Assembly: GCA_963752285.1 (NCBI GenBank)
Contig: CAVVXN010000005.1
Coordinates: 1,888,001 to 1,952,000, forward strand
Source of the DNA: an uncultured Planctomycetota bacterium
GTDB lineage: Bacteria > Planctomycetota > PLA2 > JAEUHO01
DNA length: 64,000 nucleotides
Direction: 5' to 3'
In this document: in pieces, positions 2,837-58,935 of the stretch
Layout of the letters: each line of letters starts with the position of its first letter
How positions within the stretch are numbered: position 1 is the first letter of the stretch
Notes under the pieces: model-generated
Seen by the model: only the letters and a program-made list of their open reading frames with translations
Told to the model about the DNA's origin: nothing
Databases searched by the model: none
Translations under genes and position numbers: made by a program

Positions 2837-2838
2837 GG

Positions 2839-4428: not shown

Positions 4429-4441
4429 GAGTCCGTCCTCC

Positions 4442-10806: not shown

Positions 10807-10808
10807 CG

Positions 10809-12140
<1,332 letters not shown>

Positions 12141-12144
12141 CGGG

Positions 12145-13985: not shown

Positions 13986-14108
13986 GGGGGCGGGACCTAC
14001 GAGGCGGAGGGGCACGCGGGCGGGCGGGGGACGGCACGAGGCGACCGGCGGACGAAGGAACCCGCTGCGGCGGGCGGTAGGGCGAGCCCTGGTCGGTCGG
14101 CTCGACGG

Positions 14109-14612: not shown

Positions 14613-14682
14613 GGCCGTCGGTGGTCGTCCCGGAGCGGTTCGGATCGCGGTTCGGACGGGAGGAGAGGATCGCCGCTGCCGG

Positions 14683-15387: not shown

Positions 15388-15410
15388 GGCGTGTCCTTTC
15401 CGGCCCTCCG

Positions 15411-23708: not shown

Positions 23709-23832
23709 GAGATCCTACTCCTCGACGAGGCCGGATCCACGGGCCGTCGGTGATCGAACGCCGCGGATGGCGCGCCCCACGCCGGCTCGACGCCCGGCCC
23801 CCGCGCGCCCGGTCGCTCGCCGCCGGACGGCG

Positions 23833-25446
<1,614 letters not shown>

Positions 25447-25515
25447 GTGTTCCTCGTCGGGTCTGGGGGTCGGGTCAGGGCTCTCTCTCGGTCGTCGTTC
25501 GGACGGGGCGCGCGC

Positions 25516-25803
25516 TCACTCGAAGAGCGCGAGCACCTCGTTCTCGCGGAGGATCTTGAGCTCGTCCCCCTTCCACTTGATCTCGGTGCCGGCGTACTTG
25601 CCGTAGAGCACCTCGTCGCCGACCTTGACGGTGAGCGGGACGCGCTTGCCGTCGTCGTTGAGCCGGCCCTCACCCACCGCCAGGACCTTGCCCCGCTGGG
25701 GCTTCTCCTTGGCGGTGTCGGGCAGCAGGATGCCGCCGGCCGTCTTCTCCTCGGCCTCGATCGGCTGGACCACGATGCGGTCATCGAGCGGGCGGATGGC
25801 CAT
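25516..25803 (-). CDS. groES: Co-chaperonin GroES
   Basis: [41 protein letters not shown]. Confidence 0.97.
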
Positions 25804-25942
25804 GTTCGGTCGTCTCCATCGCGGGGCCGGGGCCGGGGAGCGGTCCCCGCGCGCCGGTCCCATCACGGTTTCAGTCTCGTCCGGGATCCTCGGTCTTCGA
25901 TCCGGCCCGCCGCGCCCTTCCGCGCGCCGGGCCGGCTCCGGT

Positions 25943-27586: not shown

Positions 27587-27623
27587 CTCCTGGGGTACGG
27601 GGCCGTCCCTCGGGGGCGCGTCT

Positions 27624-32647: not shown

Positions 32648-32792
32648 GCGCCGCACGATACCCGGCCGCGGCGCCGGGACCGGGCCTCTGCGTCCGTATA
32701 CTCCCGGGCCGTCGTCCCCGGTTTGGCGTCGCGGGCGGGCCCGGCACGGGGCCGAGGTCGTCCCCCGGGGCCCTCCCGGTCCGGAGTCCGCG

Positions 32793-42411: not shown

Positions 42412-43218
42412 TCACTTCGGGAGGAAGTGCAGCCAGTCCCGGAGCAGGAACTGGGCCCGGCCGATGAAGAGGGACAGGCGCGCCATGACCGTGAAGCCGA
42501 AGGACGCGCCGAACCCGACCATCAGGAACCAGACGCCCAGGCTCGCCGCGAATCCGAACGCGCCCCGGTGAGGCACGGAGAAGAAGAAGTACATCAGGCC
42601 GCAGATCGTCCCGATGATCAGCAGCGGCACGCCGATCTGCCACAGCGGCACGAGCGTGAAGCCGGCGGGAACGCCCGTCCCGTACAGCGCGCTCGCGTAC
42701 TGGATGGGCAGCATGGTGGCGATCTCCAGCTGCGTCGTGATGTTGGCCTGAATCGTCACGGGGATGGCGAGGCCCGACGAGATGCCGATCGTGGCGGCGA
42801 TCGACCAGCGCGACAGCCAGGCCACCTTGGGGAAGATGCGCGTAAGCATGAGGACGCCCAGGATCGCGGGGACCAGCAGCGCCCAGCGGAAGACCACGGC
42901 GCTGCCGAACAGGACGTCGTCCTCGCCGAGCTGGCCGTACACCAGCTTGTCCCAGAACCGCGGTTTCAGGACCTGGAAGGCGTAGTAGACGGCGAAGTAA
43001 CCCATCGCGAGGCCCACCATCATGTGCTCGGCGGCCTTGTAGACGGGATTGTCGCGGTAGAGAAACGAGAGGATGATCAGCGTGAGCCACGCCGCGACCA
43101 CCATTCCCAGCGTCTCCCGGAAGGTCGCCGCGTCGTCGGTCTTCACGGTCGCCGTATACGACCACACGAAGAGACCGAGCAGCACGACCCCGATGGCGAT
43201 CTGCAGCTGACGTTTCAT
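42412..43218 (-). CDS. Hypothetical polytopic membrane protein (GlmL-like module)
   Basis: About 7 TM; SFLYRDNPVYKAAEH..VG..GY; FLMVGFGASFGFTVMAR; ATGA overlap. Confidence 0.85.
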   Translation of the reverse strand: MKRQLQIAIGVVLLGLFVWSYTATVKTDDAATFRETLGMVVAAWLTLIILSFLYRDNPVYKAAEHMMVGLAMGYFAVYYAFQVLKPRFWDKLVYGQLGEDDVLFGSAVVFRWALLVPAILGVLMLTRIFPKVAWLSRWSIAATIGISSGLAIPVTIQANITTQLEIATMLPIQYASALYGTGVPAGFTLVPLWQIGVPLLIIGTICGLMYFFFSVPHRGAFGFAASLGVWFLMVGFGASFGFTVMARLSLFIGRAQFLLRDWLHFLPK

Positions 43219-44126
43219 CGCTCACCTGCCTTCTTGCGACCGAGGAAGAAGCCGAGGTTCCCGAGGACGATCAAGAGGAGGATGTACATGTGCGTGATGG
43301 ACTGGGGATCCATCCCCTCCGCGGCTCGTCCCAGCGGATCCCCGTACCTCTCGTGCACGAGCTCCTCGTACTCGGCGGCGCCTCTCAGGCCCGCGATCAT
43401 CCCCTTCGACTGCAGGGGGATGTAGGGCGTGAAGTCCGCGGCCATGACGTTCGTGACGCCCATGGCGAAGCGCGCGCCGAAGCGCTCGACGGCGTTCGAG
43501 ATCCAACCCTGGGGGATGTTCGTGCCCGAGAGGTCGAGGACGATCTGGAGGTCCTTGTAGTTCTTCACGTTGCGGAAGATCGGCATGTCGTCCAACGGGA
43601 CCCCGCGGACGTCCTTCGGGTAGTTCGCCCGGATGTCCACGCCGATCGACTGGATGACCGCCCCGTAGGGCGTGTTGAACCCGAGGTACGCGTAGTTCAC
43701 GCCCTCCTCGATGCTCGGGGCCCGTCCCGCGGCCACGTCCTCCTGGTTGAACTCCGCGGCCACGGCGTCGAGGAGGTCCCGAGCGAGGCCGGCGCCCGTC
43801 GGCAGGAAGGAGATGACGACGACCTCCCCGTGCCGGTGGAACACGTGTCGGAGCACGGCCTTGGCCATGGGCCCCAGCTCGGCCAGCGTGCCGGGATCGA
43901 AGTCCATCGAGAGGAGCAGCGGCCGCGAGGCAGGGTCGCTCGCCGGCTTCAGCTTCTCGAGCTCGTCGAACACCATCTGCGTGTACCGGGTCGCGCGCAC
44001 CGGGAGGCGCATCGGGTACTTGAGGGGGATCACGGTCGCCAGCGCGACGCCGAGGAACACCCAGCGCCGGTCCATCCGGGACAGGCCGACGACGAACCGG
44101 CCCAGCATCGGCAGGAAGTTCTTCAT
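43215..44126 (-). CDS. Hypothetical membrane-anchored alpha/beta protein (GlmL-like module)
   Basis: N- and C-terminal TM; DRRW, DFDPGT.AEL.P, GMIAGLRGAAEYE, GMDPQS. Confidence 0.85.
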   Translation of the reverse strand: MKNFLPMLGRFVVGLSRMDRRWVFLGVALATVIPLKYPMRLPVRATRYTQMVFDELEKLKPASDPASRPLLLSMDFDPGTLAELGPMAKAVLRHVFHRHGEVVVISFLPTGAGLARDLLDAVAAEFNQEDVAAGRAPSIEEGVNYAYLGFNTPYGAVIQSIGVDIRANYPKDVRGVPLDDMPIFRNVKNYKDLQIVLDLSGTNIPQGWISNAVERFGARFAMGVTNVMAADFTPYIPLQSKGMIAGLRGAAEYEELVHERYGDPLGRAAEGMDPQSITHMYILLLIVLGNLGFFLGRKKAGER

Positions 44127-44128
44127 GG

Positions 44129-44791
44129 CTATCCCCTCCCCACCCAAGTCCGGTCGATGCCGAGCATGAGCTTCAGGGCGGTGGCCGTCATGCCGAGACC
44201 GACTCCGATCATGATGGCGCGCTTCGCCGCCGTGTTGGGGAACTCCATGATCCACTGCTTCGCGTCGGAGATGCCCGGGATCCAGGCCTCACCGAGCGGA
44301 ACGGCGCCGAGCATCACGAGCGCGGCCGCCACGAGCAGGAGCGTCGCCTCGAGGTTCCGCGCGCGGAACGCGCGGAATGCCGCGCTCGCGATGTAGAACG
44401 CGAGCAGGGCGAACATCGTCGCCTCCATCGGCACGAGCCCGTAGTTGAAGAGCCACGTGAAGAGCACGCTGTCCTGGGGGCGGCCCGGCGGGGAGTGGAA
44501 GAGATCCGCGAACGCCCCCGGGAAGAGGCCCGGGAGCATCCCCGGGATGAGGATCACGAAGAACGCGGCGATGGCGAGCAGGTTGTAGCCCCACCCCTTC
44601 GCCTTGCGCCGGAACCGCGCCCAGTGGTGGAGGAGGAACGACAAGATCGCCAGGAAGAACGCGAAGCCCGTGATCACAGGCGTCCAGACGAGGACGAGCT
44701 GGTAGAAGCCGTTCATCCACGGCAGGTAGTACGTGGTGATCATCAGCGTTCCGATGATCAGCGCGATCGCGAGCGGAACGGTGCGTCTCAT
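44129..44791 (-). CDS. Hypothetical polytopic membrane protein (GlmL-like module)
   Basis: 5-6 TM; ATMFALLAFYIASAAFRAFR, PNTAAKRAIMIGVGLG, GIDR. Confidence 0.85.
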   Translation of the reverse strand: MRRTVPLAIALIIGTLMITTYYLPWMNGFYQLVLVWTPVITGFAFFLAILSFLLHHWARFRRKAKGWGYNLLAIAAFFVILIPGMLPGLFPGAFADLFHSPPGRPQDSVLFTWLFNYGLVPMEATMFALLAFYIASAAFRAFRARNLEATLLLVAAALVMLGAVPLGEAWIPGISDAKQWIMEFPNTAAKRAIMIGVGLGMTATALKLMLGIDRTWVGRG

Positions 44792-46140
44792 TGCCCCACC
44801 TTGAAGAGCGTTTCGGGGAGGTCCAGGATCCGGTGATCCCAGTCACCGGGGCTCCGGAACGCCGCGTAGACGAAGAACCCCACGGAGAGCAGGACCATGG
44901 CGGCGATGACGATCGCCTTGTTCCAGTCCTGACCTTTCAGGCCGCCCGTGAGCTTGGGGTCGCCGCCCATGTAGGCGCCCGCGGCGTAGAGCTCCTCGCC
45001 GATGAGCGTGTAGTCGCACGCCACGATGAAGAACGGGAGCTGGGTCACGGCGTCCGTCCCGGCGATCTGGATCGCGCCGGTGAGGTTGCCCGTCTCGGCG
45101 AGGAGGAGGGACTCGGCGTAGAACATGCCGAGGAAGAAGTTGGTGGCCGGCTTGTCGCGCACCATGATCCCGTTGACGGCGGCGGCGTACGCGAACTGAC
45201 GAGCGGAGAGGTAGAAGACGTTGTCGTCCGAGTACGCGTCCGGGCGGCCGGCCTTCAGGAACGACTCCCTCACGACCTCCTGCGCGACGGTGAACACGAT
45301 CGGGTCGTAGTTGGGAACGACCAGCTTGCTGTCGTACCGCGCGGCCTTCTCGGCGACCGCGCCGAGGATGCTGAGCGCCGCGAGGGTGGCCACGTCCTCG
45401 ATCGTCGAGATCCCGGGGACGAAGAGGATGGGTTTCCCCATCTCCGTGGAGCGCCCGATCGCCTCCTCGACCGCCTGGATCGCCGGGATGGGTCGGACGT
45501 AGATCTTGCTGTTCCGCTTGAGGATGGGGATCGCGAGCGCGAGGAGCGGAAGGAGGGCCACGATGGCCGCCTTCACGCCCGCGTACGACTCCCCCGCCGC
45601 GAGGATGATGAGCGCGAAGACGAGGCCGAGGGCGACGTAGCCGAGCAGGAAGGGGACGGACACGCGCCGGCCGGCCGCCCAGATCCACCCGAGGATCAAG
45701 GACGTGAAGAGGAACACGAAGACGAGGCTCTTGAACTTCGGGCTGTCGAACGCGTTCGGCTCCGCGACCGCCTCCGTGTCGGCGACGGCACGCGTCCCTT
45801 CGAGGACGGACCCCGGCGACCCGGCGAGCGAGGACACCGCGTAGAACCAGGTGTCGGTCCCCGCCGACCCGTCGAGGTAGGCGTGCGTCGCGCGGTCCAC
45901 GTCGGTGACACGCGTCCAGGGCCCGTCCGCCGCCGGTCCGCGGGAGATCCGGTAGCCCTGGAAGCCCGGCGAGGACTCCTCCTTCGACGCGCCCCACTTC
46001 ACCTGGATCGTCCCGCCGCCCCAGTCGTACGGGTAGTCCACGGCGCTCACGCGGGAGGGCGGCGCCGGGCCTTGCTCCTGCGCGAGGGCGGGCGGCGCGA
46101 AGAGCACCGCCAGCAACAGCACGGGCCACCAACGTCTCAT
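44788..46140 (-). CDS. Fibronectin type III plus DUF6754-like membrane protein
   Basis: Signal peptide; FN3-like (V.W..GYRISR..YLD..YAV); 3 TM; EAIGRSTEMGKP, QFAYAA, AESLLLAETG, DYTLIGEELYAAGAY. Confidence 0.8.
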   Translation of the reverse strand: MRRWWPVLLLAVLFAPPALAQEQGPAPPSRVSAVDYPYDWGGGTIQVKWGASKEESSPGFQGYRISRGPAADGPWTRVTDVDRATHAYLDGSAGTDTWFYAVSSLAGSPGSVLEGTRAVADTEAVAEPNAFDSPKFKSLVFVFLFTSLILGWIWAAGRRVSVPFLLGYVALGLVFALIILAAGESYAGVKAAIVALLPLLALAIPILKRNSKIYVRPIPAIQAVEEAIGRSTEMGKPILFVPGISTIEDVATLAALSILGAVAEKAARYDSKLVVPNYDPIVFTVAQEVVRESFLKAGRPDAYSDDNVFYLSARQFAYAAAVNGIMVRDKPATNFFLGMFYAESLLLAETGNLTGAIQIAGTDAVTQLPFFIVACDYTLIGEELYAAGAYMGGDPKLTGGLKGQDWNKAIVIAAMVLLSVGFFVYAAFRSPGDWDHRILDLPETLFKVGQ

Positions 46141-46177
46141 GGCGCCCTCCCTCCGGGGGACCCGCCCGCGCGAGCCC

Positions 46178-47305
46178 TCACGACTCGATCATCTCTACGT
46201 TCGCGCGCGGAAGCATGTACTCCTTCCCGGAGTCGAGCTTCACTTGGAGCACGCGCACCTTCGTCTCGCACTCCATCTCATGGAGCTCGTGCGGCAGCCC
46301 GGTCACGTGACCGAGCTCTCCGAAGTTGGGCTCTCGGATGATGCGCACGCGCGAACCCTCGCGGAGGCCCATCGTGAGCGCCTCGCCCCCCATCGCCTCC
46401 GGCCGGGCGCGGTCGAGCTTCGGGATCACGATCTCGGGGCGGATCACGCCCGCACGGATCTGGGTCGCCCCGTTGATCGAGGCGCGGAGCCCCTGGTTCT
46501 CCCTCAGGAGGTCGAAGGTGCGCTGGGCCATCGCGATCTCGCCGAAGCCCTCGGTCAGGACCAGCGTGACGCCGATGTCCTCGTGCCCCGTGATCGCCAC
46601 GCCGAGGTCGTGCCCGAGGAGCGTCTTCAGGTCGCGGTCGTCGAACCCGCCGCAGATGAGACCGCGGACGCCCGCCGCCTTCGCCTTCTCGATCGCCTCC
46701 ATCGTGAGGCGGCGGCCACCGACCAGGAGCTCGCCCTCGGCCCGGGCGGGGATCCGGGCGGCCGTCAGGTCGTCGCCGGGACCGTCCACCACCGTCCTCA
46801 GCGTCCCGCTCGTCTCGCCGCCGACGCCGAAGATGCCCTGGATGAAGGTGCCCCACGTCTCGATCGTGGCGCCCTCCTGCTCGTGCACCTCGGAGACGAC
46901 CCCGTCCACGTACGCGAGGACCTCGACGGGCACCGGCGGCTCCCGGAGCAGCACCTGTCCCGTCACCTTGGAGAGCGTCTCGATCGTGCCCGTGATCGGC
47001 GACTCACAGGTACTCGTGAACAGGCCGAAGAACGACTTCGACTCCGCGATCACCTCGCCCTTCTCGACCTCCTGGCCCTCCGTCTTCTTCATGTACCGGC
47101 CGAGGTCGGAAGCCTCGATCGAGAGGCGGTGCGCGACGTTCACCGAGTGGACGTCGCCGGGGAGCTTGGTCCGCGCGATGACCTGGTCGTGCTTCACGGC
47201 GTCGCCGGCCCTCACGAGCACCTCGCCGAGGAGCGGCAACCGCCGCTCCTTCACGAGGAGCGTGAACTCGGAGACGCGCAGTCCGGGCGTGTAGGCGTGG
47301 CCCAT
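46178..47305 (-). CDS. Hypothetical protein with barrel-sandwich-hybrid repeats and C-terminal KOW/SH3-like domain
   Basis: MGHAYTPGL; GDAVKHDQVIA, GQEVEKGEVIA..SPITGTI; QGIFGVGGE; TEGFG; GATQIRAGVIRPE; GSRVRIIREP.FG. Confidence 0.85.
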   Translation of the reverse strand: MGHAYTPGLRVSEFTLLVKERRLPLLGEVLVRAGDAVKHDQVIARTKLPGDVHSVNVAHRLSIEASDLGRYMKKTEGQEVEKGEVIAESKSFFGLFTSTCESPITGTIETLSKVTGQVLLREPPVPVEVLAYVDGVVSEVHEQEGATIETWGTFIQGIFGVGGETSGTLRTVVDGPGDDLTAARIPARAEGELLVGGRRLTMEAIEKAKAAGVRGLICGGFDDRDLKTLLGHDLGVAITGHEDIGVTLVLTEGFGEIAMAQRTFDLLRENQGLRASINGATQIRAGVIRPEIVIPKLDRARPEAMGGEALTMGLREGSRVRIIREPNFGELGHVTGLPHELHEMECETKVRVLQVKLDSGKEYMLPRANVEMIES

Positions 47306-47369
47306 GTCGGTCCTCGTCCTCTCGGAAGAGCGCGGGCCCCTCGTGGACCGCGCGCCGCGCAATCGATCC

Positions 47370-49233
47370 CTACGACTCGAGCTTCGGGTACGCGTCGAGC
47401 GCCTTCGTCCAGCGTCCGATCCACCCCACCCGCTCGGCGGGGTCCTCGGGAATCGTGAAGGGCCGCCGGCCGCGGCAGTCCACGACGATCCCGGTCACGC
47501 CGCCCTCCATCTCCACCTCGACTTCCTTCCCGGGGCCCGCGCCCACGTCGAAGCCGCGCTGCGGCCTGAGCACGCCCTTCGCCTTCGCGTCCCCGTACGG
47601 GAAGGGGAACACGCGGGTGTCCCCGTACGAGAAGGTCTCCCTGATCGGCGATCCGCCCGGCACGTCGATCTCGACTTCGAGGCAGGGCTTGCCCGGCTTC
47701 CCGCTCCCGACCGGCGCGATCACCGTGCCGAGCTGGATCAGGCAGTCCTTGTGGAAGACCTCGACGGCGGCGCGTTTCGCCGACTCCTCGATGCCCTCCG
47801 TGTCCACGGCCGACAGCACGCCGAGCTGCGGCATCATGAAGATGGAGTCCACCGCGATCCGCGTCACGCCCTCGGGCAGGAACGCGTCGATCAGCATCAT
47901 GGCCGCCTGCGCGCGCCGAGGGGCATGGGAGAGGACGCCGCCCGAACCGACCAGGAGGTCGAGCTTCATGAGGTCGACGAGGGTCTTCCCCGACCCCGAC
48001 TGCTTGAACGTGTCGGCGATCGTGCGCGTCTGCTGCACGCCCTTGAGCCCCACCGCGAGCTCCTTGTGCTGGATGAAGGCGAGGCGCAGCGCTTCGCGCG
48101 CGATCGCCTGCTCCACCATGAGCTCCTGGAGGGTCTGCGGGATGGTGGTCGGCCGGATCATCTTGTTCCGGATCCGGTTGCTCAGGTCGCGCTCGTCGAT
48201 CTCGAAGGGGACCCAGCGGAGGATGTTCGCGAGGCCCGCCTCGGCCAGCACGTTCGAGACCGAGTAGCTCATGCCGAGGTTCGCCGAGACGGTGCGGTTG
48301 AAGATCTCCTGCTTCACCCCCTTCTCGTCCTCGGTCGCCAGACGGAGAAGACGTCGGTCGTGGCGCCGCCGATGTCGACGCCGACCACGCTGATGCTCTG
48401 GAGGTGCGCGATCGTCTGGATGATGAGCCCGACCGCGCCCGGGGTGGGCATGATCGGCACCTCGGTCCAGTTCATCAGCTTCTTGTAGCCGGGGGCGTGC
48501 GCCATCACGTGCTCCATGAACAGCTCGTGGATCGCGTCGCGCGCGGGCTTCAGGTTCTCGCGCTCGAGTACGGGCCGCAGGTTGTCCACGATCGTCAGCG
48601 CGCACTTCGCCTCGAGCAGGTCGCGGATGTTCTGGCGCGCGTCCTTGTTGCCGGCGTAGATGATCGGCAGCTTGTACTGTGCGCCGAGGCGCGCCTGCGG
48701 GCGCGCGGCGGAGACGAGCTCCGCGATCTCGACGACCTTGTCCACCGTCCCGCCGTCGGTGCCGCCGGAGAGCAGGATCATGTCGGGCCGGAGCTGGCGG
48801 ATCCGCTCGATCGTTCGTGGGGACGGCGGCCGTCGTTGGTCGCGAGCACGTCCATGACGATCGCGCCGGCGCCGAGCGCCGCCCGCTCGGCCGTCTCGCC
48901 GGTCATCTGCTTGACCACGCCCGCGACCATCATCTGGAGCCCGCCGCCCGCCGACGAGGTCGAGACGTAGAGGTCCACCCCCTCGCCGTCCTTCTCGGGG
49001 CTGATGATTCGTTCGCCGTCGAGGATCTTGCGGCCGGCGAGCTCCTCGACCTCGCCCACGGCGTTCAGGACGCCGCGGGTCACGTCCTCGAACGGCGCCT
49101 CGACCGTGGTCGGCGCCTCGCCGCGGACCACGAGGCGGTACCCGTCCTCCTGCTTCTCGATCAGGATCGCCTTCGTGGTCGTGGAGCCGCAGTCGGTGGC
49201 GAGGATGCTCCGGAGCTCGGTCGGTCCGCTCAT
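47370..49233 (-). pseudogene. glmL: GlmL/MutL-like ASKHA (actin-fold) ATPase, about 621 aa, split by two 1-nt frameshifts (pseudogene or sequencing error)
   Basis: TDCGSTTTKA, SSAGGGL, LLSGGTDGG, MPTPGAV, DIGGATTDVFS, GSGGVLSH spread over three frames; adding 1 nt near 48812 and 1 nt near 48339 gives one continuous 1866-nt ORF. Confidence 0.8.
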
Positions 49234-49667
49234 GCGCTGCCTCCGCCGGCGCGATCGACCCGCGCGGCCTTGATCGCCCGCCACCTCGCGCGGGCCTCCC
49301 GGCGCCTCGCCTTCGCGGCCCTCCGCTCGGCTCGGCGGCGGTCCTGCTCTTCCTGGCTCTCGCGCTCGATCGTCACGATCAGGCGCTCGACGTTGTCGCG
49401 GTTCTCCAGGAGCTCGGCGAAGCGCCGGTAGATGGCGTGGGAGTAGCCCGGGCCGGCGAAGCCCTGTAGGAACGGCTCGAACACGTGGACGATCGGGCTC
49501 GCGGCGACCATCGCCTGCGAGCCCAGGAACGAGAGGGGCCGGTGCGACTCGAGGAAGAGGATCGCCGGCGCCGTCAGGCGACGGGCGACGACCCAGGTCG
49601 CCAGCCGGTCGAAGATCTGCTGGTCGGTCAGATCCTCCGGGGGGGTCGGGTCCGGCTTCTCGGTCAT
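49230..49667 (-). CDS. Hypothetical small helical protein (GlmL-like module)
   Basis: PAILFLESHRPLSFLGSQ..LLENRDNVERLI..IE; ATGA overlaps on both sides. Confidence 0.8.
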   Translation of the reverse strand: MTEKPDPTPPEDLTDQQIFDRLATWVVARRLTAPAILFLESHRPLSFLGSQAMVAASPIVHVFEPFLQGFAGPGYSHAIYRRFAELLENRDNVERLIVTIERESQEEQDRRRAERRAAKARRREARARWRAIKAARVDRAGGGSA

Positions 49668-50098
49668 GCCCGCTCGGTCTTCGGTTGGAGCCGCCGCTCC
49701 AGGTACGCGAGGACCCGGTCCCGGTCGGGGGCGTCGAACCGCAGGTTGAGGCCGTGGAGCCTGTCGAGACGGGACGGCCGGTCGAACGGGGAGAGCAGGG
49801 CCCCGTACCGATCCGCCTGCCACCGCCGGTAGAGGTCCCAGGGCTTCTCGCGGGTGCCGAACGGGGTCCGGATGGACACGGTATCTTGCGTCATCCGATA
49901 GCGCGTCGGCAGGTAAAACGGGGACAGCGAGACGGCCAGCACGACCGCGGAGAGCGCCGTCATGAGCGCGTCGTGGAAGGCCGCGGCAATGCCCGCCACG
50001 AGCAGGACGAGGAACGCGGTCAGCAGCGCGCCCGTGACGGGTCGATGACGGACGGGGTGACACACCCACTCGATCGCCTCCGGTTCTTCGGACCCCAC
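49664..50098 (-). CDS. Hypothetical 2-TM protein with C-terminal beta (PH-like) domain
   Basis: W..HP, two TM helices, FYLPTRY, LLSPFDRPSRLDRLHGL; GTG start inferred. Confidence 0.75.
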   Translation of the reverse strand: MGSEEPEAIEWVCHPVRHRPVTGALLTAFLVLLVAGIAAAFHDALMTALSAVVLAVSLSPFYLPTRYRMTQDTVSIRTPFGTREKPWDLYRRWQADRYGALLSPFDRPSRLDRLHGLNLRFDAPDRDRVLAYLERRLQPKTERA

Positions 50099-52141: not shown

Positions 52142-53260
52142 TCAGTCTACAGGCCCACGCGCGGTCGGCCCGGATCGGGCGAGAGCCGGACGGCGCCCTT
52201 TCCAGGCGTGGAGCGCGAGCGTCACGCCGATGATCAGGTAGGTCGAGAACTCGCGGAGGTACTCCCCCACCTGCGCCGAGGCGAGGAGCTTCTGGCCCGC
52301 GAGCGAGACCACCACGATCAGCGTGTGGAAGAGCACCGTGCCGAGGACCGCGTGGCCGATCGTCGCGCGGGCCACGGTCGCGCCCCCCACCAGAAGGGCG
52401 GCGATGGCGTAGAAGCCCACCTGCTCGTGCGACGTGAACGTGTTCATGACCGTCATGTTCTGGAGGAAGAGGATCTGGCCGATCCCCGCGAGGACCATCG
52501 AGAACACCACCGCGAGGACGCGCCCGCGCCGGACGCCGATCCCGGCCACCTCGGCGACGTGCGGGTCCTGCCCGATCGCGCGGAGGTCCTGCCCGAGCTT
52601 GGTGCGGAAGAGGAGCCAGATCCCCACGCAGAGCAGAACCGAGCACCCCAGCGTCACGACGGGGAGCTCGCCCCAGAACCGGCCGTCGATCCGGAGCGGG
52701 ATCGACAGGACGCCGTCGACCGCGCGTTCGACCGTCGTGAGGTCGATCGTCACGCGGACGCCCATGCCCCCGCCCTCGGGCAGGAGGACGTCCCGGGCGT
52801 GGATCGGGAGCACCGGCCCCGCGAGGATCATGAACACGAACTGGTAGATGCCGGCCGCGAAGAAGCCGAGGATGATGCCCGTGATCATCTCGCGGCCCGG
52901 CGCGCGGTTGAAGAGGCGCCCGGTGGCCCACCCGAGGAGCGTCGCGATCGGGATCGAGACGATCGTCGCCACGACGATCCCGCCGACGCCGCCGATCTGC
53001 CCGTTCTGCACGACGAGGAGCCCGGCCTGGCCCGCCATGGCACCCAGCACGATCCCGAAGTTCAGGCCGAGCCCCGCGGCGATCGGAATCACGAGCGAGA
53101 GGACGAGGAAGAGGTTCCGCGCGACGCGGTCGAGAACGTCGCTCGTCACGCGCGGGAGGTCGAGGTGGGCCGTGGCGATGCCCGCCGCGCAGACCGCGAG
53201 CACGACGAGCGGCACGAGCTGGTGGCCCCCGAGGCGGAGGCGTCGCAGGTCGAGCCTCAC
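52142..53260 (-). CDS. ABC transporter permease (CUT2/BPD_transp_2 type)
   Basis: GLGLNFGIVLG, RTKLGQDLRAIGQD..AEVAGI, AIAALLVGGA. Confidence 0.88.
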   Translation of the reverse strand: MRLDLRRLRLGGHQLVPLVVLAVCAAGIATAHLDLPRVTSDVLDRVARNLFLVLSLVIPIAAGLGLNFGIVLGAMAGQAGLLVVQNGQIGGVGGIVVATIVSIPIATLLGWATGRLFNRAPGREMITGIILGFFAAGIYQFVFMILAGPVLPIHARDVLLPEGGGMGVRVTIDLTTVERAVDGVLSIPLRIDGRFWGELPVVTLGCSVLLCVGIWLLFRTKLGQDLRAIGQDPHVAEVAGIGVRRGRVLAVVFSMVLAGIGQILFLQNMTVMNTFTSHEQVGFYAIAALLVGGATVARATIGHAVLGTVLFHTLIVVVSLAGQKLLASAQVGEYLREFSTYLIIGVTLALHAWKGRRPALARSGPTARGPVD

Positions 53261-54459
53261 GACGACCTCCGCACGACGCGCGTCAACGCGTACAGGATCA
53301 CCCCGTTCTGGATCACGAGACGGGCGATCTCGGGCAGGTTCGCGAGGGCCCGCCTGTAGGGGCTGCTCTGGACGAGGTCGTTCACGACCGGGAGCGACGT
53401 CGTCAAGAGCGACTGGAAGAGGAAGGTCCCGACGATCGCGTGGAAGACCGTGGCGCGCCGGAGCGACGCGCCGCCGAGCAGGAGCGACGCGACGGCGGGG
53501 AAGGCCATCCAGAGGGGCGCCTTGTAGAGCTGGTAGAAGCCGTAGGACTGGGAGTAGACGAGGATCCCGACCGCGGCGAGCACCGTCGAGAGGACGATCG
53601 AGAGCACGCGCATCCGCGGCACCGAGACGCCGATCGAGGTCGCGTACCGCGGGTTGGAGCCGGCGACGGTCAACGCGGTCCCGAGGCGCGTGCGGAGGAA
53701 GACCGCGACGGCCGCACACGCGCCGAGCCAGTAGAGCAGGAGCCCGGTCGGTACGTAGAAGCCCGGCGGGCGCGTGAGCGCGCCCGGCGCCTCCTTGGCC
53801 GTCGCCCCCCACGAGCCGAAGTCGATCTCGCCGAACGAGTCGAGGATCCACTTGTAGTGGGCGTCGAGGACCAGCGTGTTCCTCACGCCGCTCCCGCCGA
53901 TGGGCCAGATCAGCTCGGGGCTGGTCACGGGCGCGACGAGCCAGACCACGCACATCCCGGCCACCGCGCCGAATCCCACGTAGATCCCGACCATCATCTC
54001 CTGTCCGCGCACGCGCTCGAGGAGCCAGCCGTAGCCGAGCCCGAGGAGCGCGCCGAGCGGGATCGCCACGAGGTGGGCCAGCGCGAACCCCGAGAGCCCG
54101 CGCGCATACGCCGAGAGTGACGACAGCGCGGCGATCCCGAACGGCGTCGTGGCCGTCAGCTCCATCACCGCGATCCCGCCGACGAGGCCGCAGACGATCC
54201 CCAGCGGGAGCCCGAAGTTCAGGCCGTTCCCCGCGCGGACGGGGAGCACGAGCGCCAGCACGAGCACGCCGTTCATGCCCGTCCGGACGAGGCAGTCGCC
54301 CAACAGCGTCCCGAGGTCGTTCGACGTGAAGGCCGCCGCGACGACCCAGATGACGGCGAGGAACAGGACGATGATCCACCGCGCGAGCCCGAACGCGCGC
54401 GTCCCGTCCGCCAGGCGCTCGAGGAACGCGCGCGGGGCGATGTCGGAGCCTCCCCTCAC
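53257..54459 (-). CDS. ABC transporter permease (CUT2/BPD_transp_2 type)
   Basis: GNGLNFGLPLG, RTRLG..AGSNPRYA..GV, FPAVASLLLGGA. Confidence 0.88.
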   Translation of the reverse strand: MRGGSDIAPRAFLERLADGTRAFGLARWIIVLFLAVIWVVAAAFTSNDLGTLLGDCLVRTGMNGVLVLALVLPVRAGNGLNFGLPLGIVCGLVGGIAVMELTATTPFGIAALSSLSAYARGLSGFALAHLVAIPLGALLGLGYGWLLERVRGQEMMVGIYVGFGAVAGMCVVWLVAPVTSPELIWPIGGSGVRNTLVLDAHYKWILDSFGEIDFGSWGATAKEAPGALTRPPGFYVPTGLLLYWLGACAAVAVFLRTRLGTALTVAGSNPRYATSIGVSVPRMRVLSIVLSTVLAAVGILVYSQSYGFYQLYKAPLWMAFPAVASLLLGGASLRRATVFHAIVGTFLFQSLLTTSLPVVNDLVQSSPYRRALANLPEIARLVIQNGVILYALTRVVRRSS

Positions 54460-56066
54460 GCGGCCTCCCCCGACATGAGGAGCCCGAAGCGCGCGTCCGG
54501 GGCGTCGGGCGGGAGGACCCCCGCGATCCTCCCTTCGCTCACGATCGCGATGCGGTGGCAGATCGACCTGAGCTCCGCCAGCTCGCTCGACGTCATGACG
54601 ATGGTCAGGCCCTCTTCGCGGTTCTGGCGCACGAGCCGGTCGAGCACGAGCGCTTTCGCGCCCACGTCGATGCCGCGCGTCGGCTCCGAGACGAGCAAAA
54701 TGCGCGGCGCGAGGGCCAATGCGCGTGCGAGGCACACCTTCTGCTGGTTCCCGCCCGAGAGACGCCGGACGGCCTGCGACGGACCCGTCGTGCGGATGTC
54801 GAGGTCCTCGATCCAGCGGCGCGCCGCGGCGCGCACGGCGCGGCGGTCCACCCACGCGAGCGGCCCGAGCCAGCGGGCCCGGAGGAACGCGTGCCGCACC
54901 TCGACCGAGGGGAGGGCGACGTTCACGTCGAGGGGCTCGTCGAGGAGGAGCCCGACGCCGCGACGGTCCTCGCTCACGAAGGCGAGGCCGAGCGCGTGCG
55001 CGGCGCGCGGGCTGCCGAGCGAGAGCGGCCGCCCCTCCACGACGACCTCCCCCGTCGCGGGAACGAGCCCCATCAGACCGTTCGCGACGCCGAGCTTCCC
55101 CTGGCCGGCGAGGCCGCCGATGCCGAGGATCTCGCCGTTCCGGACCTCGAGGTCCACGCCGCGCACGATCTCTCCGGGCATGTCCACGCGAAGCCCCCGC
55201 ACCGCGAGGGCCACGCCCGACGACGCCGCCGGCGGGGTCGGCGCCGAGCCCGCCTCGAGCGCGCGCCCCACCATCTTCGCGGCGATCTCCTCGATCGACG
55301 TCTCGTGTGTCGGCCCCACGAACACGCGTCGGCCGTCGCGGAGGATCGTCACGCGGTCGGCCACGGCCAGGACCTCGTGGAGGCGGTGGGTGATGAAGAG
55401 GATCGCGACGCCCTCCTTTGCGAGGCGACGCATCACGTCGAGGAGGCGCGAAGCCTCGTCCTCGGTCAGCACCGCGGTCGGCTCGTCGAACACGAGCACG
55501 CGCGTCCCTTCCTTGTCGATCTCCCGCGCGATCTCGACGAGCTGCTTGTGCCCGACGGGGAGCCCTCCCACGACGACGCCCGGCCCCACCTCGAGGCCCG
55601 CGCGCTCGAGACTCGCCTCCGTGTCGCGCGTCATGCGCGGCCGGTCGAGTAGCTGGAGGATCCGTCCCCACGTGGTGCCGACGACGGGCTCGCGGCCGAG
55701 CTTCACGTTCTCCGCCACCGTGAAGCCGGGGAGCAGCATGAACTCCTGGTGGACCATGCCGATCCCGAGCGCCATCGCCTCGCGGGGCGACCGCACCACG
55801 ACGGCCTCGCCCCCGATCTCGACGGTCCCCTCGAAGCCGCCCGTCGCGTGGACGACGGGCATGCCGAAGAGCACGTTCATGAGCGTGGACTTGCCCGCGC
55901 CGTTCTCGCCGACGAGCGCGTGGACCTCGCCGGGCCCGACCTCGAGGTCCACGCCGTCCAGCACGACGGTGCCGTGGTACGCCTTGCGGATCCCGCGCAG
56001 GGCGAGCGCGGGCGCCGAGGCCCGGGCGTCCGTTGCGGAAGCTGCTGCTGTCCGGTCCTCGCCCAT
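54456..56066 (-). CDS. Sugar-type ABC transporter ATP-binding protein (two ABC domains)
   Basis: GENGAGKST, GMVHQE, FDEPTA, EDRR, LSGGNQQK, EPTRGIDVGAK. Confidence 0.93.
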   Translation of the reverse strand: MGEDRTAAASATDARASAPALALRGIRKAYHGTVVLDGVDLEVGPGEVHALVGENGAGKSTLMNVLFGMPVVHATGGFEGTVEIGGEAVVVRSPREAMALGIGMVHQEFMLLPGFTVAENVKLGREPVVGTTWGRILQLLDRPRMTRDTEASLERAGLEVGPGVVVGGLPVGHKQLVEIAREIDKEGTRVLVFDEPTAVLTEDEASRLLDVMRRLAKEGVAILFITHRLHEVLAVADRVTILRDGRRVFVGPTHETSIEEIAAKMVGRALEAGSAPTPPAASSGVALAVRGLRVDMPGEIVRGVDLEVRNGEILGIGGLAGQGKLGVANGLMGLVPATGEVVVEGRPLSLGSPRAAHALGLAFVSEDRRGVGLLLDEPLDVNVALPSVEVRHAFLRARWLGPLAWVDRRAVRAAARRWIEDLDIRTTGPSQAVRRLSGGNQQKVCLARALALAPRILLVSEPTRGIDVGAKALVLDRLVRQNREEGLTIVMTSSELAELRSICHRIAIVSEGRIAGVLPPDAPDARFGLLMSGEAA

Positions 56067-56249
56067 CGCGGCGAAGGGTACCGCGCGCCCGCCCCGATCG
56101 GAGCACGGAACGGCTCCCACGAGGGAGCGCGGCGTAACGGGAGCAGGAGCGGGGAGCGCGCGGGTCCCCGCGGGCGACGGCGCCGGCGCTCTTGCCGATC
56201 CCGGAGTCTTGGCCCGCCGAGACGAGGGGCTACGACTCCGCCCATGGTC

Positions 56250-58028
56250 TCAGGCGTCGTCGAACGTCTCGCCCGGCTCGAGGCGTCGGACCGTGCCGTT
56301 CTCGACGACGAGGCGGAGGTCGCACGACGCGAGCGTCTCGATCCGGTGGGCGATCGTGAACGTCGTCCGTCCTCGCATCAGGCGGTCGAGCGCGGCCATC
56401 ACCTCGGCCTCGGTCTCGCGGTCGAGCGCGCTCGTGGGCTCGTCGAGGATCAGCACCGGTGCGTCGCGCAGGAACGCGCGGGCCAAGGCGATCCGCTGGC
56501 GCTCCCCGCCCGAGAGGCGCATGCCGCGTTGTCCCACCGGGGTCTCGTACCCCTTCGGCAGCGCGGACACGAACTCGTGCGCCGCCGCCGCCCGCGCGGC
56601 GGCCTCGATCTCGTCCGCCGAGGCGTCGGGTCGCCCGTAGGCGATGTTCTCGCGCACCGTGCCGGCGAAGAGGACGCTCTCCTGCAGCACGATCGAGAAC
56701 TGGCGCCTCAGGTCGCGGAGCTTCAGGTCGCGAAGGTCGACGCCGTCGAGGCGGATCGTCCCGGACGTGGGGTCGTGGAGCCGCGGCAGGAGCCCCAGGA
56801 GCGTGCTCTTCCCCGAACCGGTCCGTCCCGCGATGCCGACGCGCGCGCCCGCGGGCACCTGGAGCGAGAGGTGGCGCAGCACCTCGGCGCCGTCCTGGTA
56901 CCCGAACGACACGTCCTCGAACGTGAAGGCGCCCTCGGCCCGGTCGAGGGACCTCGCGCCCGGTCGCTCCACCGTCTCGGGCTCCTCGTCCAGGACCGCG
57001 AAGACGCGCGCCGCGCTCGCGAGCGATCGTTGAAGGGCCCCCATGCGCGTGCCGAGGTCGCGGAGGGGCGCGACGAGCTGCGACAGGTACGCGATCACCA
57101 ACAACAGCTCGCCGAGCGTGACGGCCCCGGCCTCCACGTGCCGCGCGCCGAGGTAGAGGACGGCGGCGCCGATGACTCCCGTGACGAGGCCGGCGATCAG
57201 GTCGAAGGTGCCGTGCGCGAGCACCGCGCCGAGCGCGGCGCGGAGGCCCGCCTCCGCGCGAACGTAGAAGCGGCCGCGCTCGCGATCCTCGGCACCGAAG
57301 GTCTTGACGACCCGGAGCGCGCCGAGGGCCTGCTCGGCCGCGGCGATCGCCGAGCTCTCCTCCTCGCGAACCGTCGCCCAGCGGCGGCGGAGCCCGCGCC
57401 TGAACAGCTCCGTCACGCCGAAGAGGACCGGACCTCCCAGCAGCGCCACCAGCGCGAGCACGAGGTCGAGGCGCGCCGTCGCGTAGATCAGCACCGCCAC
57501 CTTCGCGAGCGAGGTCGCGAACGGGATCCAGCCCTCGACCGCGACGGCCTGGATGGCGGGCGCGTCCTGCTGGAGGCGGTAGACCGCGTCCGCCACCCCC
57601 CGGCGGTCGTGGAAGGCGATGGAGAGACGCTGCAGGTGCTCGAGCAGTCGGCTCCGGAAGCCGAGGATCAGCTTCTGCCCGACGTACGTCTCGAGCGTCC
57701 AGGAGAGGAGCGACTGGACCTGGAGGAGGAGGGCGAGGACGACCGTCGCGACGGCGGACGCCACCAGGAGGGTGTTCGGGTCGGCGATCCAGGCGTCGGG
57801 GAGGAAGCGTTGCAGCCACGCCGGCACGGGCTCCCGGGCGAGCACGTGGTCCACGACGACCTTGACCGGGAGCGGCATGAGGAGCGCCAGGGGCGCGCCG
57901 AGGAGTCGCAGGAGGAAGGCGAGCGAGAGCCCCGGCAGGAACGGCCGCGCCTCGGCGAGGAGCCGGCGGGAGAGGACGAGGTCGCCGTACGTCCGCGGCG
58001 TGTCGGTCGGGGCCGGGGGCGCGGTCAT
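56250..58028 (-). CDS. ABC exporter, fused permease/ATPase (MsbA-like)
   Basis: TMD then GRTGSGKST, LSGGERQR, ILDEPTSALD, IAHR; GGAGG RBS. Confidence 0.92.
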   Translation of the reverse strand: MTAPPAPTDTPRTYGDLVLSRRLLAEARPFLPGLSLAFLLRLLGAPLALLMPLPVKVVVDHVLAREPVPAWLQRFLPDAWIADPNTLLVASAVATVVLALLLQVQSLLSWTLETYVGQKLILGFRSRLLEHLQRLSIAFHDRRGVADAVYRLQQDAPAIQAVAVEGWIPFATSLAKVAVLIYATARLDLVLALVALLGGPVLFGVTELFRRGLRRRWATVREEESSAIAAAEQALGALRVVKTFGAEDRERGRFYVRAEAGLRAALGAVLAHGTFDLIAGLVTGVIGAAVLYLGARHVEAGAVTLGELLLVIAYLSQLVAPLRDLGTRMGALQRSLASAARVFAVLDEEPETVERPGARSLDRAEGAFTFEDVSFGYQDGAEVLRHLSLQVPAGARVGIAGRTGSGKSTLLGLLPRLHDPTSGTIRLDGVDLRDLKLRDLRRQFSIVLQESVLFAGTVRENIAYGRPDASADEIEAAARAAAAHEFVSALPKGYETPVGQRGMRLSGGERQRIALARAFLRDAPVLILDEPTSALDRETEAEVMAALDRLMRGRTTFTIAHRIETLASCDLRLVVENGTVRRLEPGETFDDA

Positions 58029-58935
58029 CCACCCTCCTCCCGCCCTCTGTCGCGCGGGGGCCGCGGATTGTAGGGGGCGCCGGCCCGGCGCTCGCGCCGG
58101 GGTGGCCGGTCGCGCCATCCTGCGCCCGCGGGGACGACGCGGCTCGCGGCAAGGCGCCCCGCGCCAGGGGAACGCGATGGTGGAGCGCACGAGGGGACGG
58201 CGCCCCGGGGACGAAGCCATGGGCCTCCCTCGACGGAGCCCCGAACCGACCGCCTCCGGATTCCACGTGGAACGAAGCCCGGACGGCCTGGTCTCGGCGG
58301 ATGCCGCGACCGTCGAGGAGGTCTACGGACAAGGCGGTCGAACTGCGGTCGGTTCGGCAACGCCGTATGCTTCCAGCCGCGGCGGAACCCGAGGCGCCAT
58401 GGCGGAGAGTCCCATGCGCGTCGTCGGGGAAGATCGCTTTCGCCTGTGGCGGCGACCCGTAACAGAGTGAGCTGCGTGACCCCATTCCAAACCCTCTTGA
58501 TCACCGACCAGACCCTCTCCCCCTCTCCCGAGGGTTCGAGAGGAAGGCGTACGGTTGGTGAGTTGAATGGCTGGTCGCCAGCCGGAAAGCCCAAGAAGTC
58601 CACCGTCCGCCAGGCCCGCGGTTCTGGCCCTCGCGGGCGCCCGTCCGGACCGGTTCTCTCCGCGTGCTCTCGTGCCTCTCAGGGGCGCATGCGAAGAGGT
58701 GGCTCCACGGGGAACACACGCCCGCGAGCACGCTCTGCTCGCGAAAGGCGCTGGGGACGCGATCACGGAGCGAACCCGGCTGTGCGTCACGGACGTCGGC
58801 TCTCGCCGATGCCACCCCGATCTGCGCCGATCCCGAATCAGAACGCGCGAAGCAACGGATTCCGCGGCTCTGTGCGCACGGGTTCGGCGGCGAGGGCTGG
58901 AGAGCCGGCCGCACGCTCCCGTGCTACGCCACCGG

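Follow-up and report, generated by a model that had tools for sequence, protein, structure and literature searches.

A long GlmL-like ATPase and a DUF6754 membrane complex encoded together in an uncultured Planctomycetota bacterium

The window, a 64,000-nucleotide stretch from the genome of an uncultured Planctomycetota bacterium, contains a group of eight co-directional genes, A to H, that occupies positions 42412..50098 of the minus strand (Table 1). Four pairs of neighboring genes share a 4-base ATGA overlap (49664/49667, 49230/49233, 44788/44791, and 43215/43218). An initial annotation of this DNA had described the eight genes and the four overlaps, and both are borne out by the reading frame coordinates and the sequence.

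Table 1. Genes and frame shifts of the locus, with the evidence for each
Feature	Position	Strand	Description	Evidence
A	49664..50098	-	144-aa small membrane protein	ORF and hydropathy
B	49230..49667	-	145-aa small protein	ORF and hydropathy
C	47370..49233	-	long GlmL/MutL-family actin-fold (ASKHA) ATPase, ~620 codons	PF13941 on three pieces
C frame shift 1	48811..48814	-	one base fewer than a relative	blastx and contig of run X5
C frame shift 2	48336..48340	-	one base fewer than a near relative	blastx and contig of run X1
D	46178..47305	-	375-aa cytoplasmic partner of the ATPase	alignment and structure model
E	44788..46140	-	450-aa membrane protein with DUF6754 and FN3	PF20539 and structure model
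F	44129..44791	-	220-aa polytopic membrane protein	ORF and hydropathy
G	43215..44126	-	303 aa, soluble domain flanked by TM helices	ORF and hydropathy
H	42412..43218	-	268-aa polytopic membrane protein	ORF and hydropathy

We compared the locus with 76 loci that encode DUF6754, each with up to 10 kb on either side (less at contig ends). The start of A was taken as the GTG at 50098. Its protein is hydrophobic over one long stretch (about residues 23-60), which fits two TM helices as first proposed, and ends in a soluble tail; there is no match in Pfam, NCBIfam, or PADLOC. Relatives of A (tblastn, 32-38% identity) lie directly upstream of B in 7 of the 76 loci. B overlaps both A and C, with an ATGA at each end, and a Kyte-Doolittle scan found no strongly hydrophobic segment, which fits its earlier description as a small helical protein. 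Genes related to B adjoin the ATPase in 11/76 loci and are also beside it in WOR-3 and Cloacimonadales genomes, where the ATPase sits away from E-F-G-H.

C matches the Pfam MutL family (PF13941) on three pieces (2.4e-34, 8.6e-48, and 8.5e-34) that cover model positions 1-109, 120-264, and 274-440 of 450. It thus belongs to the same Pfam family as GlmL/MutL and the Or-4 ornithine-degradation relative (PF13941; NF040745, NF040744, TIGR01319), and it has the same actin-fold (ASKHA) nucleotide-binding motifs; DCGSTTTK, DIGGATTD, and GSGG are all present in the translations. GlmL/MutL proteins have about 460 residues, whereas C has about 620. The long C-terminal extension that the initial annotation had suspected amounts to about 140 residues past the end of the MutL model and is kept in orthologues of 593-625 aa. 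The summed bits of the three pieces are far below the NCBIfam equivalog cut-off.

Family membership, and the name "glutamate mutase L" carried by database relatives, would point to a classical GlmL, which assists or reactivates coenzyme-B12-dependent glutamate (methylaspartate) mutase. The absence of GlmE refutes this role in these data, and we consider it almost certainly wrong for C. The E subunit of glutamate mutase was not found anywhere in the genome (89% complete), and no B12-binding family was recognized by Pfam among the 61 coding segments of the window, in keeping with what had been noted from the sequence. Across the phylum, GlmE scores above the cut-off in 3 of 201 genomes, none of which is among the 48 that carry the long ATPase. 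The low equivalog score, the additional C-terminal residues, and a different set of partners also argue against it: in the genomes compared, the long ATPase always occurs with D and DUF6754, is often fused to D, and is never found with glutamate mutase.

The structure model of D (pLDDT 84.9) has a barrel-sandwich hybrid part (about residues 16-150), a swivelling beta/beta/alpha-like domain (about 130-300), and a KOW/SH3-like barrel (313-375; Z 8.5, rmsd 1.5, 52 aligned). Together with a score of 26.7 bits on Pfam Biotin_lipoyl (cut-off 22.1), the model upholds the earlier barrel-sandwich-hybrid/KOW description. The Pfam families RnfC_N and NQRA_N also match, each below its cut-off. The alignment contains an invariant N-terminal H-x-Y-T-P-G-L. 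Fold comparison with VIA-align gave the PTS enzyme I His domain (Z 9.4), RraA (8.9), rifampin phosphotransferase (8.6), KOW (8.5), RnfC (7.8), and NqrA (7.7), and these values are only slightly above the background of the tool, for which a best Z of 7-8 is typical. NqrA and RnfC, of the Na+-NQR and Rnf complexes, have an N-terminal barrel-sandwich hybrid like that of D (64 residues, at tool-background level) and are likewise cytoplasmic and encoded beside polytopic membrane subunits. Unlike in those proteins, no FMN/NADH-binding, SLBB, or Fe-S domain was recognized in D, and neither F nor H was recognized as a subunit of Nqr or Rnf. The central domain has its best structural matches (108-126 aligned residues) in PTS enzyme I, rifampin phosphotransferase, and RraA-like proteins, but in contrast to PEP-utilizing enzymes D has no Pfam PEP-utilizer match and no invariant histidine in that domain; its sole invariant histidine is residue 3, in the N-terminal tail. 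The D family has 3480 representatives at E<=0.001. About 50 protein clusters are C-D fusions of 659-1022 aa with the D part behind PF13941, and this part is 44-52% identical to D over 91-100% of its length.

E encodes a signal peptide, an FN3 domain, three TM helices, a DUF6754 domain (residues 219-392), and a last TM helix. Both domains had been named in the initial annotation: DUF6754 matches Pfam PF20539 at 1e-104, and FN3, although missed by Pfam at E<=0.01, was found by a profile search against solved structures (titin, 3.4e-4) and in the structure model (pLDDT 91.5; Z 12.5), where FN3 filled both result lists of the fold comparison. Based on the positive-inside rule, the FN3 domain would be outside and DUF6754 inside, and the soluble domain of G is probably outside as well. 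G has no match in Pfam, even with 47 members and a threshold of E<=1, or in the PDB profile search. We count about 5-6 hydrophobic segments in F, which has no match in Pfam, NCBIfam, or the PDB profile search, and about 6-7 in H, which has none in the PDB profile search.

The membrane genes accompany E at most of the DUF6754 loci (F in 72/76, G in 67/76, and H in 65/76), and a second E-F-G-H copy without A-D is present on contig C3 of the same genome. In 10 of the 76 loci, E is preceded on its own strand by C and D. All eight genes are contiguous and in the order of the window in three (L057, L064, and L071), and three others (L030, L036, and L038) have the full set with H about 4.6 kb further on. 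Neither C nor D occurs within the flanks of up to 10 kb at 61/76 loci, an observation that counts against an ATP-driven machine. The module had been described as one of eight genes; it is not a fixed block but consists of two conserved units, A-B-C-D and E-F-G-H, which many genomes carry at separate places.

Genome-wide, the two units go together. In the organism's own phylum, 48 genomes encode both the ATPase and DUF6754, 150 encode neither, none has the ATPase only, and three have DUF6754 only, so that presence of the two agrees in 198/201 genomes; the three exceptions are all assemblies of 410-660 contigs. In a second phylum, both DUF6754 (2-6 matches per genome) and the ATPase are found in 61/61 genomes. 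The ATPase match is single in 59 of these; in G081 it is divided between two contigs, and G052 has an additional match at 45% identity. Whole genomes with E-F-G-H encode C (62-77% identity) and D in 5/5 cases, even where the genes are apart, and E-F-G-H often has multiple copies per one ATPase. These data support the part of the earlier interpretation that ties the long GlmL-like ATPase to membrane genes and not to glutamate mutase. C-D paralogues are also found away from E-F-G-H, for example a 951-aa fusion among unrelated genes (L097); C-D can therefore work independently of this membrane complex.

Most of what the initial annotation reported on the locus (gene set, overlaps, motifs, and domains) is confirmed, but the ATPase is not one open frame. 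The three motifs are in three different frames (48781-49233, 48317-48781, and 47373-48338), and both shifts had been read across without mention. Orthologues are single ORFs, with lengths of 593-610 aa at 11 loci and of 609-625 aa in the whole genomes examined. Against three of them, blastx gives a seamless run over orthologue residues 3-138, 139-296, and 288-595, with frame changes at 48811 and 48338. At the first shift, one extra base lies behind 48814 in a 142-base contig (run X5) that differs in 15 other letters; at the second, one extra base lies behind 48336 in a 151-base contig (run X1) that differs in 3. There are no in-frame stops in C, and it retains 231 of the 237 columns that do not vary among 14 orthologues, within the range of 0-17 columns broken when each orthologue is left out in turn. 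With no sign of decay, both assembly error and very recent inactivation are compatible with the gene: in this assembly, either C contains consensus errors and belongs to an intact system, or the motor has only just been lost.

Random assembly error alone explains the breaks poorly, because two fall within 480 bases of one gene whereas frames are broken in 0/51 other coding segments of the window and at 1/144 other tested places in the genome. Neither site is at a homopolymer. DUF6754 and the ATPase were absent from the 30 relatives searched (one of the same genus, 17 of the family, 11 of the order, and one of the phylum), so the module is dispensable in the lineage, and G+C content is 0.66-0.69 across 42-46 kb vs 0.72-0.76 upstream of 42 kb. 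It is a serious possibility, if somewhat short of even, that the module was recently acquired and that its motor gene was truly inactivated by two 1-base deletions, leaving the locus non-functional in this organism. Against this, the invariant residues are kept as in intact orthologues, the reading frames of the seven other genes and of the second E-F-G-H copy are uninterrupted, and the extra base at 48336 is present in a near-identical population (run X1). The shift sites also border very conserved blocks that attract contigs of other organisms, where the consensus polishing of a metagenome assembly may misfire; at the second, next to the DIGGATTDVF block, contigs of many organisms stack (depth 570 in X5). 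Furthermore, the assembly has 5 contigs at 89% completeness, and its relatives have 80-90% at 7-20 contigs and mostly 91-96% at 60-230 contigs, a pattern that suggests long-read assemblies with some indel errors. A real inactivation here would be compatible with any reading of the system's role elsewhere.

For that role, we give about an even chance to an ATP-driven envelope machine, with a cytoplasmic C-D unit working for one or several E-F-G-H modules. Mechanotransmission ABC systems (MacB, FtsEX, LolCDE) and shared-energizer transporters of the ECF type combine a cytoplasmic ATPase with membrane subunits that have outward domains, with several modules per motor. The likeness is by analogy only, with no sequence relation; the module has no ABC nucleotide-binding domain and its ATPase is of the actin fold. 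We know of no transporter class with such an ATPase as motor.

E-F-G-H could instead be an ordinary (secondary) transporter or receptor and C-D a soluble, ATP-dependent hydantoinase/oxoprolinase-type enzyme acting on the imported compound, in which case the genes would co-occur because of a common substrate and not a complex. MutL/GlmL is related to hydantoinase A, with PF01968 precomputed on many C-D fusions, and D has a central domain similar to swivelling domains of the RraA/aldolase and phosphotransfer types. In the WOR-3 genome, C, D, and E-F-G-H lie scattered, and a glycine-dehydrogenase-like gene (named by the look of its N-terminus) is beside B-C in 7 loci. We find this unlikely. One nearly invariant ATPase (77-100% identity within a phylum) is encoded vs 2-6 membrane modules per genome, a ratio more in line with a common motor than with a single enzyme for several substrates. 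Within E, conservation is far higher in the predicted cytoplasmic domain than in the outward parts, as expected for a docking surface, a single 707-aa D-DUF6754 fusion exists, and no riboswitch was found here or in 7 related loci.

More improbable still, C-D may be a reactivase-like ATP-dependent chaperone that loads, unloads, or resets the Rossmann-like DUF6754 of E as its client, as proposed for GlmL and the Rossmann-like B12-binding subunit of glutamate mutase. Membership of C in the GlmL/MutL family would fit, as would the predicted (beta-alpha)6 pattern of DUF6754 and its enzyme-like conservation, with 44 invariant columns in 81 E sequences, including C375-D376. The diol/glycerol dehydratase reactivase (DdrA) and EutA likewise combine an actin-fold ATPase with a swivelling domain; unlike these, the module has no B12 enzyme in its neighborhood and its partners are membrane proteins. 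No cofactor-binding family was recognized in E, and to our knowledge the role of GlmL itself is not established.

We regard the locus as one copy of a widespread bacterial system that is uncharacterized and matches no described one. As an envelope machine, it would have a cytoplasmic part, the actin-fold ATPase C and its obligate partner D, preceded by A and B, and an inner-membrane complex of four subunits, in which E would present FN3 outward and DUF6754 inward, G would contribute a soluble domain between two TM helices, and F and H would be polytopic. Which way energy flows, where the parts dock, how E and G are oriented, and that one motor is shared are all inferred. C would bind and hydrolyze ATP and, by way of D, alter the conformation of E-F-G-H at the cytoplasmic face, and this change may drive transport across the inner membrane or pass a mechanical signal through it. 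A single C-D unit may work with one or several interchangeable E-F-G-H modules.

Eight minus-strand reading frames lie at 42412-50098, as the initial annotation had described, and the four ATGA overlaps that it listed are borne out by the gene coordinates and the sequence. The genome (G000; 4.64 Mb, 5 contigs, 89% complete) carries the window at G000:C5:1888001-1952000, where G+C is about 70%. We refer to the genes as A to H: a small membrane protein (A), a small protein (B), a long GlmL/MutL-like ATPase (C), its partner protein (D), an FN3 and DUF6754 membrane protein (E), two polytopic proteins (F and H) and a protein with a soluble domain between transmembrane (TM) helices (G).

Genes of the ATPase and membrane-complex module (window coordinates)
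Gene	Position	Strand	Assignment
A	49664-50098	-	reading frame
B	49230-49667	-	reading frame
C	47370-49233	-	three frames; Pfam MutL (PF13941)
D	46178-47305	-	weak barrel-sandwich Pfam matches
E	44788-46140	-	Pfam DUF6754 (PF20539), 1e-104
F	44129-44791	-	without Pfam match
G	43215-44126	-	without Pfam match
H	42412-43218	-	without Pfam match

Pfam also gave no match for A or B. The domain ABC_tran is absent from all ten module pieces in Pfam and NCBIfam searches, and the window does have ABC genes, but at 52202-58034, beyond the module. PADLOC matched no defence family among 11 proteins (E<=0.001), and Rfam found no riboswitch or other RNA family in the module locus and seven related loci. A promoter and terminator scan returned no promoter-like site and one terminator-like site, which is under the shuffle mean.

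Elsewhere in the window there is a complete 14-gene nuoA-N operon for NADH:quinone oxidoreductase (1304-15788, minus strand), each gene with a nearly full-length Pfam match. A Cpn10 (groES) gene sits between two full-length Cpn60 (groEL) genes (23836-27622, minus strand), downstream of dnaJ and grpE (21940-23711). A 620 amino acid product (32781-34640, plus strand) combines the domains of a homocysteine S-methyltransferase and of a methylenetetrahydrofolate reductase, without a recognisable B12-binding domain.

The C pieces belong to PF13941, with 119.3, 163.7 and 117.5 bits against a gathering cut-off of 27 bits (179.5, 117.3 and 116.8 bits in a six-frame search), and align to positions 1-109, 120-264 and 274-440 of the MutL model. 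The claimed motifs DCGSTTTK, DIGGATTD and GSGG are present in the translations. We take these to be the phosphate-1, phosphate-2 and adenosine motifs of ASKHA (actin/Hsp70/sugar-kinase) ATPases, and by all three C is predicted to be one. NCBIfam gave GlmL-type matches only, all under threshold; the pieces were scored separately because the gene is frameshifted. They reach 60.1, 111.6 and 45.1 bits (rough sum 217) for the GlmL equivalog NF040745 (cut-off 475 bits) and 41.1, 89.5 and 24.2 bits (rough sum 155) for the GlmL family TIGR01319 (cut-off 204 bits), so C was assigned to neither. Orthologues of C are each one ORF, of 593-610 amino acids in 11 loci and 609-625 in four complete or near-complete genomes, and share 60-77% identity across phyla.

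The initial annotation had read the ATPase as a single gene. Its motifs are all there, but they are split over three frames (48781-49233, 48317-48781 and 47373-48338), and segmentation by third-position G+C coding potential switches frame at the same two places. By blastx against three orthologues, residues 3-138, 139-296 and 288-595 are covered without loss, with frame changes at 48811 and 48338. Neither site is a homopolymer, the pieces contain no in-frame stops, and the other seven module genes are open. C retains 231 of the 237 columns that are invariant in 14 orthologues (orthologues left out one at a time break 0-17). No public sequencing run contained half of the sampled words (best 0.23). 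Two runs did yield contigs with one extra base at the breaks: run X1 a 151-base contig with 3 differing letters (extra base behind 48336) and run X5 a 142-base contig with 15 (behind 48814). Each is a single, low-depth contig from a relative rather than from the assembled strain.

A generally error-ridden assembly was rejected as the cause: the 51 other coding segments in the window are all unbroken (46 match Pfam families, including the nuo operon), and among 145 genomic places with strong matches to proteins of the retrieved loci, only two have adjacent matches in different frames, C itself and C5:1034351-1035009. The latter is a possible second frameshift (G000:C5:1034351-1035009, query L013_2393_3073). 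Both break sites in C flank highly conserved blocks, at which contigs from many different organisms accumulate (X5 depth 570 at 48305-48371), and for this reason a local consensus or polishing error is plausible. That C has been inactivated for real, and very recently, has in our judgement a substantial but less than even chance. What the broken gene shows is either a faulty consensus of a conserved gene, in a metagenome assembly with long contigs, or a function that was lost only recently.

D had been described as a barrel-sandwich-hybrid and KOW protein, and its model (14 sequences, pLDDT 84.9) contains both parts at the level of fold, together with a central domain. Since Z values of 7-8 are commonly the best found for models that have no true match, these matches are fold-level leads. 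The barrel-sandwich part resembles RnfC (Z 7.8) and NqrA (Z 7.7) over 64 aligned residues each. The central domain is closest to swivelling beta/beta/alpha domains of PTS enzyme I (Z 9.4), RraA (8.9) and rifampin phosphotransferase (8.6), and it also matches the C-terminal domain of pyruvate kinase (Z 8.0). The KOW/SH3-like barrel has Z 8.5 and rmsd 1.5. Foldseek returned weak matches only, and an ESM Atlas search with whole D returned only its own unnamed clusters.

In Pfam, D reaches 26.7 bits for Biotin_lipoyl (cut-off 22.1), with no single stretch passing, and stays under the cut-offs for RnfC_N and NQRA_N. A biotinyl or lipoyl carrier was rejected: there is no M-K-M motif, and the lysine of A-E-[ST]-K is absent from the list of columns at least 90% conserved in the 14-sequence alignment, with Gln in 3 of the 14 sequences. 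A PEP-utiliser phosphohistidine domain was also rejected, as the 14 sequences have no invariant His within 130-300 and no Pfam match. Likeness to NqrA and RnfC was seen for the first domain only, and the RnfC parts Complex1_51K, SLBB and Fer4 are unmatched in D by Pfam. The 89 invariant columns of D include an N-terminal H-x-Y-T-P-G-L that starts with His3, Q-G-I-F-G-x-G-G-E, T-E-G-F-G and G-A-T-Q-I-R-A-G-V. The family comprises 3,480 clusters at 50% identity.

E is the FN3-DUF6754 protein that had been proposed. It matches PF20539 with 349.7 bits (cut-off 27 bits) over model positions 17-241 of 257, and its model (81 sequences, pLDDT 91.5) runs from a signal peptide through an FN3 domain (Z 12.5), three TM helices and a (beta-alpha)6 domain at 219-392 to a last TM helix. 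It has 44 invariant columns, including T-E-M-G-x-P and C-D-Y-T-x-x-G-E-E. By the positive-inside rule, the DUF6754 domain is predicted to face the cytoplasm and the soluble domain of G to face outward. In a fold search with the E model the FN3 domain filled both match lists, and residues 208-408 of E had no usable match in the ESM Atlas. A complex prediction of D with these residues scored 0.00, which counts neither for nor against binding. Profile searches of D, G, F and H against solved structures gave nothing under E 0.04, and in 47 G sequences no Pfam family appeared in more than three members (E<=1). E is not related to G (hhalign probability 0.2%), nor F to H (12.6%). More than 7,998 DUF6754 protein clusters exist at 90% identity.

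A tblastn search with the eight products found a second E-F-G-H set in the same genome, on contig C3, at 35-48% identity and without A-D; its E copy scores 360.7 bits to DUF6754. Locus L006 (G000:C3:28000-45999) holds, at about 8636-11760 and 11822-14473, this set, whose E lacks FN3, and after it on the same strand an 883 amino acid protein with many CXXCH motifs that resembles a multihaem cytochrome. Downstream of the cytochrome-like gene, 14379-16121 of L006 holds long Gly/Arg/Ala-rich frames in which a unit like AAPRRG...GGLAGPP repeats in several frames, which suggests a tandem DNA repeat.

Relatives of DUF6754 occur in at least 623 places when one genome per species is scanned, and 76 loci were kept. 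The sources are metagenome-assembled genomes (MAGs) labelled WOR-3, Zixibacteria, Latescibacterota, Fermentibacteria, Cloacimonadota, Ignavibacteria, Gemmatimonas, Planctomycetota and others. F is present in 72 of these loci, G in 67 and H in 65. For A to D the counts are 7 (A), 11 (B), 13-14 (pieces of C) and 14 (D), many loci being truncated at the end of a contig. In 10 of the 76, E has both C and D upstream on its own strand. These neighbourhoods and the dispersed genes of whole genomes rule out A-H as a fixed operon. The eight-gene module of the initial annotation is better described as two conserved units, A-B-C-D on the ATPase side and E-F-G-H as the membrane complex; a WOR-3 genome, for instance, carries C at position 1.295 Mb, D at 1.403 Mb and E-F-G-H around 2.07 Mb. 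When ORFs of 79 loci were clustered, the sole other recurrent neighbour was a glycine-dehydrogenase-like gene (7 loci). A further cluster, with members in 24 loci, overlaps F in antisense orientation and was judged to be a spurious ORF.

C and D also occur as one protein. Among 105 longer relatives of D, about 50 (659-1022 amino acids) carry PF13941 together with a part that matches 91-100% of D at 44-52% identity, and several of these are named "glutamate mutase L" by their sources. More distant fusions have 24-39% identity. In a Cloacimonadales genome (L097, G032:C1:1526000-1545999, at 8971-11826), a paralogous fusion of 951 amino acids joins a MutL-like ATPase to a D-like part, at 25-46% identity to the window pieces; it lies away from any E-F-G-H genes and adjoins a 698 amino acid protein of unknown kind. 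In one 707 amino acid protein (P0149), D continues without a break into the signal peptide, FN3 and DUF6754 of an E protein; this single case may stem from the loss of a stop codon or from faulty sequencing. A Coatesbacteria MAG (L035) has the ATPase in two parts, at 13923-14783 (plus strand) and 20161-21039 (minus strand), with H, G, F and D between. The same split is seen at G034:C1:382264-383448 and 388964-389677. Query residues 205-242 are covered by both parts. The arrangement resembles an inversion that broke within the gene, or else a misassembly.

All five E-F-G-H genomes searched have an orthologous ATPase (62-77% identity) and D, even where the genes lie well separated. In 30 relatives of G000 (one of the same genus, 17 more of the family, 11 of the order and one of the phylum), searches for DUF6754 and for the ATPase found no match. 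Across 201 genomes of the phylum that are at least 80% complete, DUF6754 is found in 51 and the ATPase in 48, with both in 48, the ATPase alone in none and neither in 150; the three with DUF6754 alone (G153, G179 and G286) are in 410-660 contigs each. The carriers in this phylum include complete genomes that consist of one contig. In the phylum of G033, a Zixibacteria-labelled MAG, DUF6754 is found in 61 of 61 genomes (2-6 matches each), as is the ATPase (77-100% identity), which has one match in 59 and is often within a few kb of a DUF6754 array. Of the other two genomes, G081 has its ATPase split between two contigs, one piece on each, and G052 carries an additional match at 45% identity. 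The DUF6754 genes of G036-G095 often form tandem arrays of two to three modules about 3.5 kb apart, with five matches in most genomes. The tie between ATPase and membrane complex is tight, since the two are jointly present or jointly absent in 198 of the 201 genomes and a whole second phylum carries both; these counts are descriptive because related genomes are not independent. An enzyme paired with a transporter is, in our view, an unlikely account of this pattern.

No link between the ATPase and glutamate mutase was found, in line with the initial annotation, which had recognised neither subunit in the window. The E subunit family PF06368 was not found in G000 (89% complete) and is over the cut-off in three of the 201 phylum genomes, none of which is among the 48 carriers of the long ATPase; strict co-occurrence with glutamate mutase is therefore not observed. 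A reactivase-like chaperone with the DUF6754 domain as its client is an improbable reading of the ATPase.

We propose instead that C and D would form a cytoplasmic, ATP-driven unit that acts on E-F-G-H, probably at the conserved face of DUF6754, and that one such unit would serve several membrane modules. Tentatively, this may be a new class of ATP-powered envelope machine, with the actin-fold ATPase C as motor and D as swivelling adaptor, shared by interchangeable E-F-G-H modules that differ in their outward domains. In a bolder variant of this proposal, a phosphorelay-like group translocation, D may take over a group from C and pass it to the invariant Cys375-Asp376 in the DUF6754 domain of E, which is predicted to be Rossmann-like.

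A literature search returned no paper with DUF6754 or PF13941. For GlmL nothing relevant was among the matches listed, and for GlmL with glutamate mutase the search gave PMC4682846. The module has no match among solved structures, defence models or RNA families. New here are the analysis of the frameshifted ATPase, the near-perfect profile in a patchy phylum, the one motor set against several modules, and the reading of the D domains. The result corrects a common mis-annotation, "glutamate mutase L". The cluster counts and the 60-77% identity point to a large and old system, probably with a core function in many uncultured lineages. To our knowledge, all primary membrane transporters and mechanotransducers described so far are powered by a small set of ATPase folds (ABC, P-type, rotary and AAA+/RecA-like). 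An actin-fold ATPase linked this closely with a membrane complex of four subunits would extend that set.
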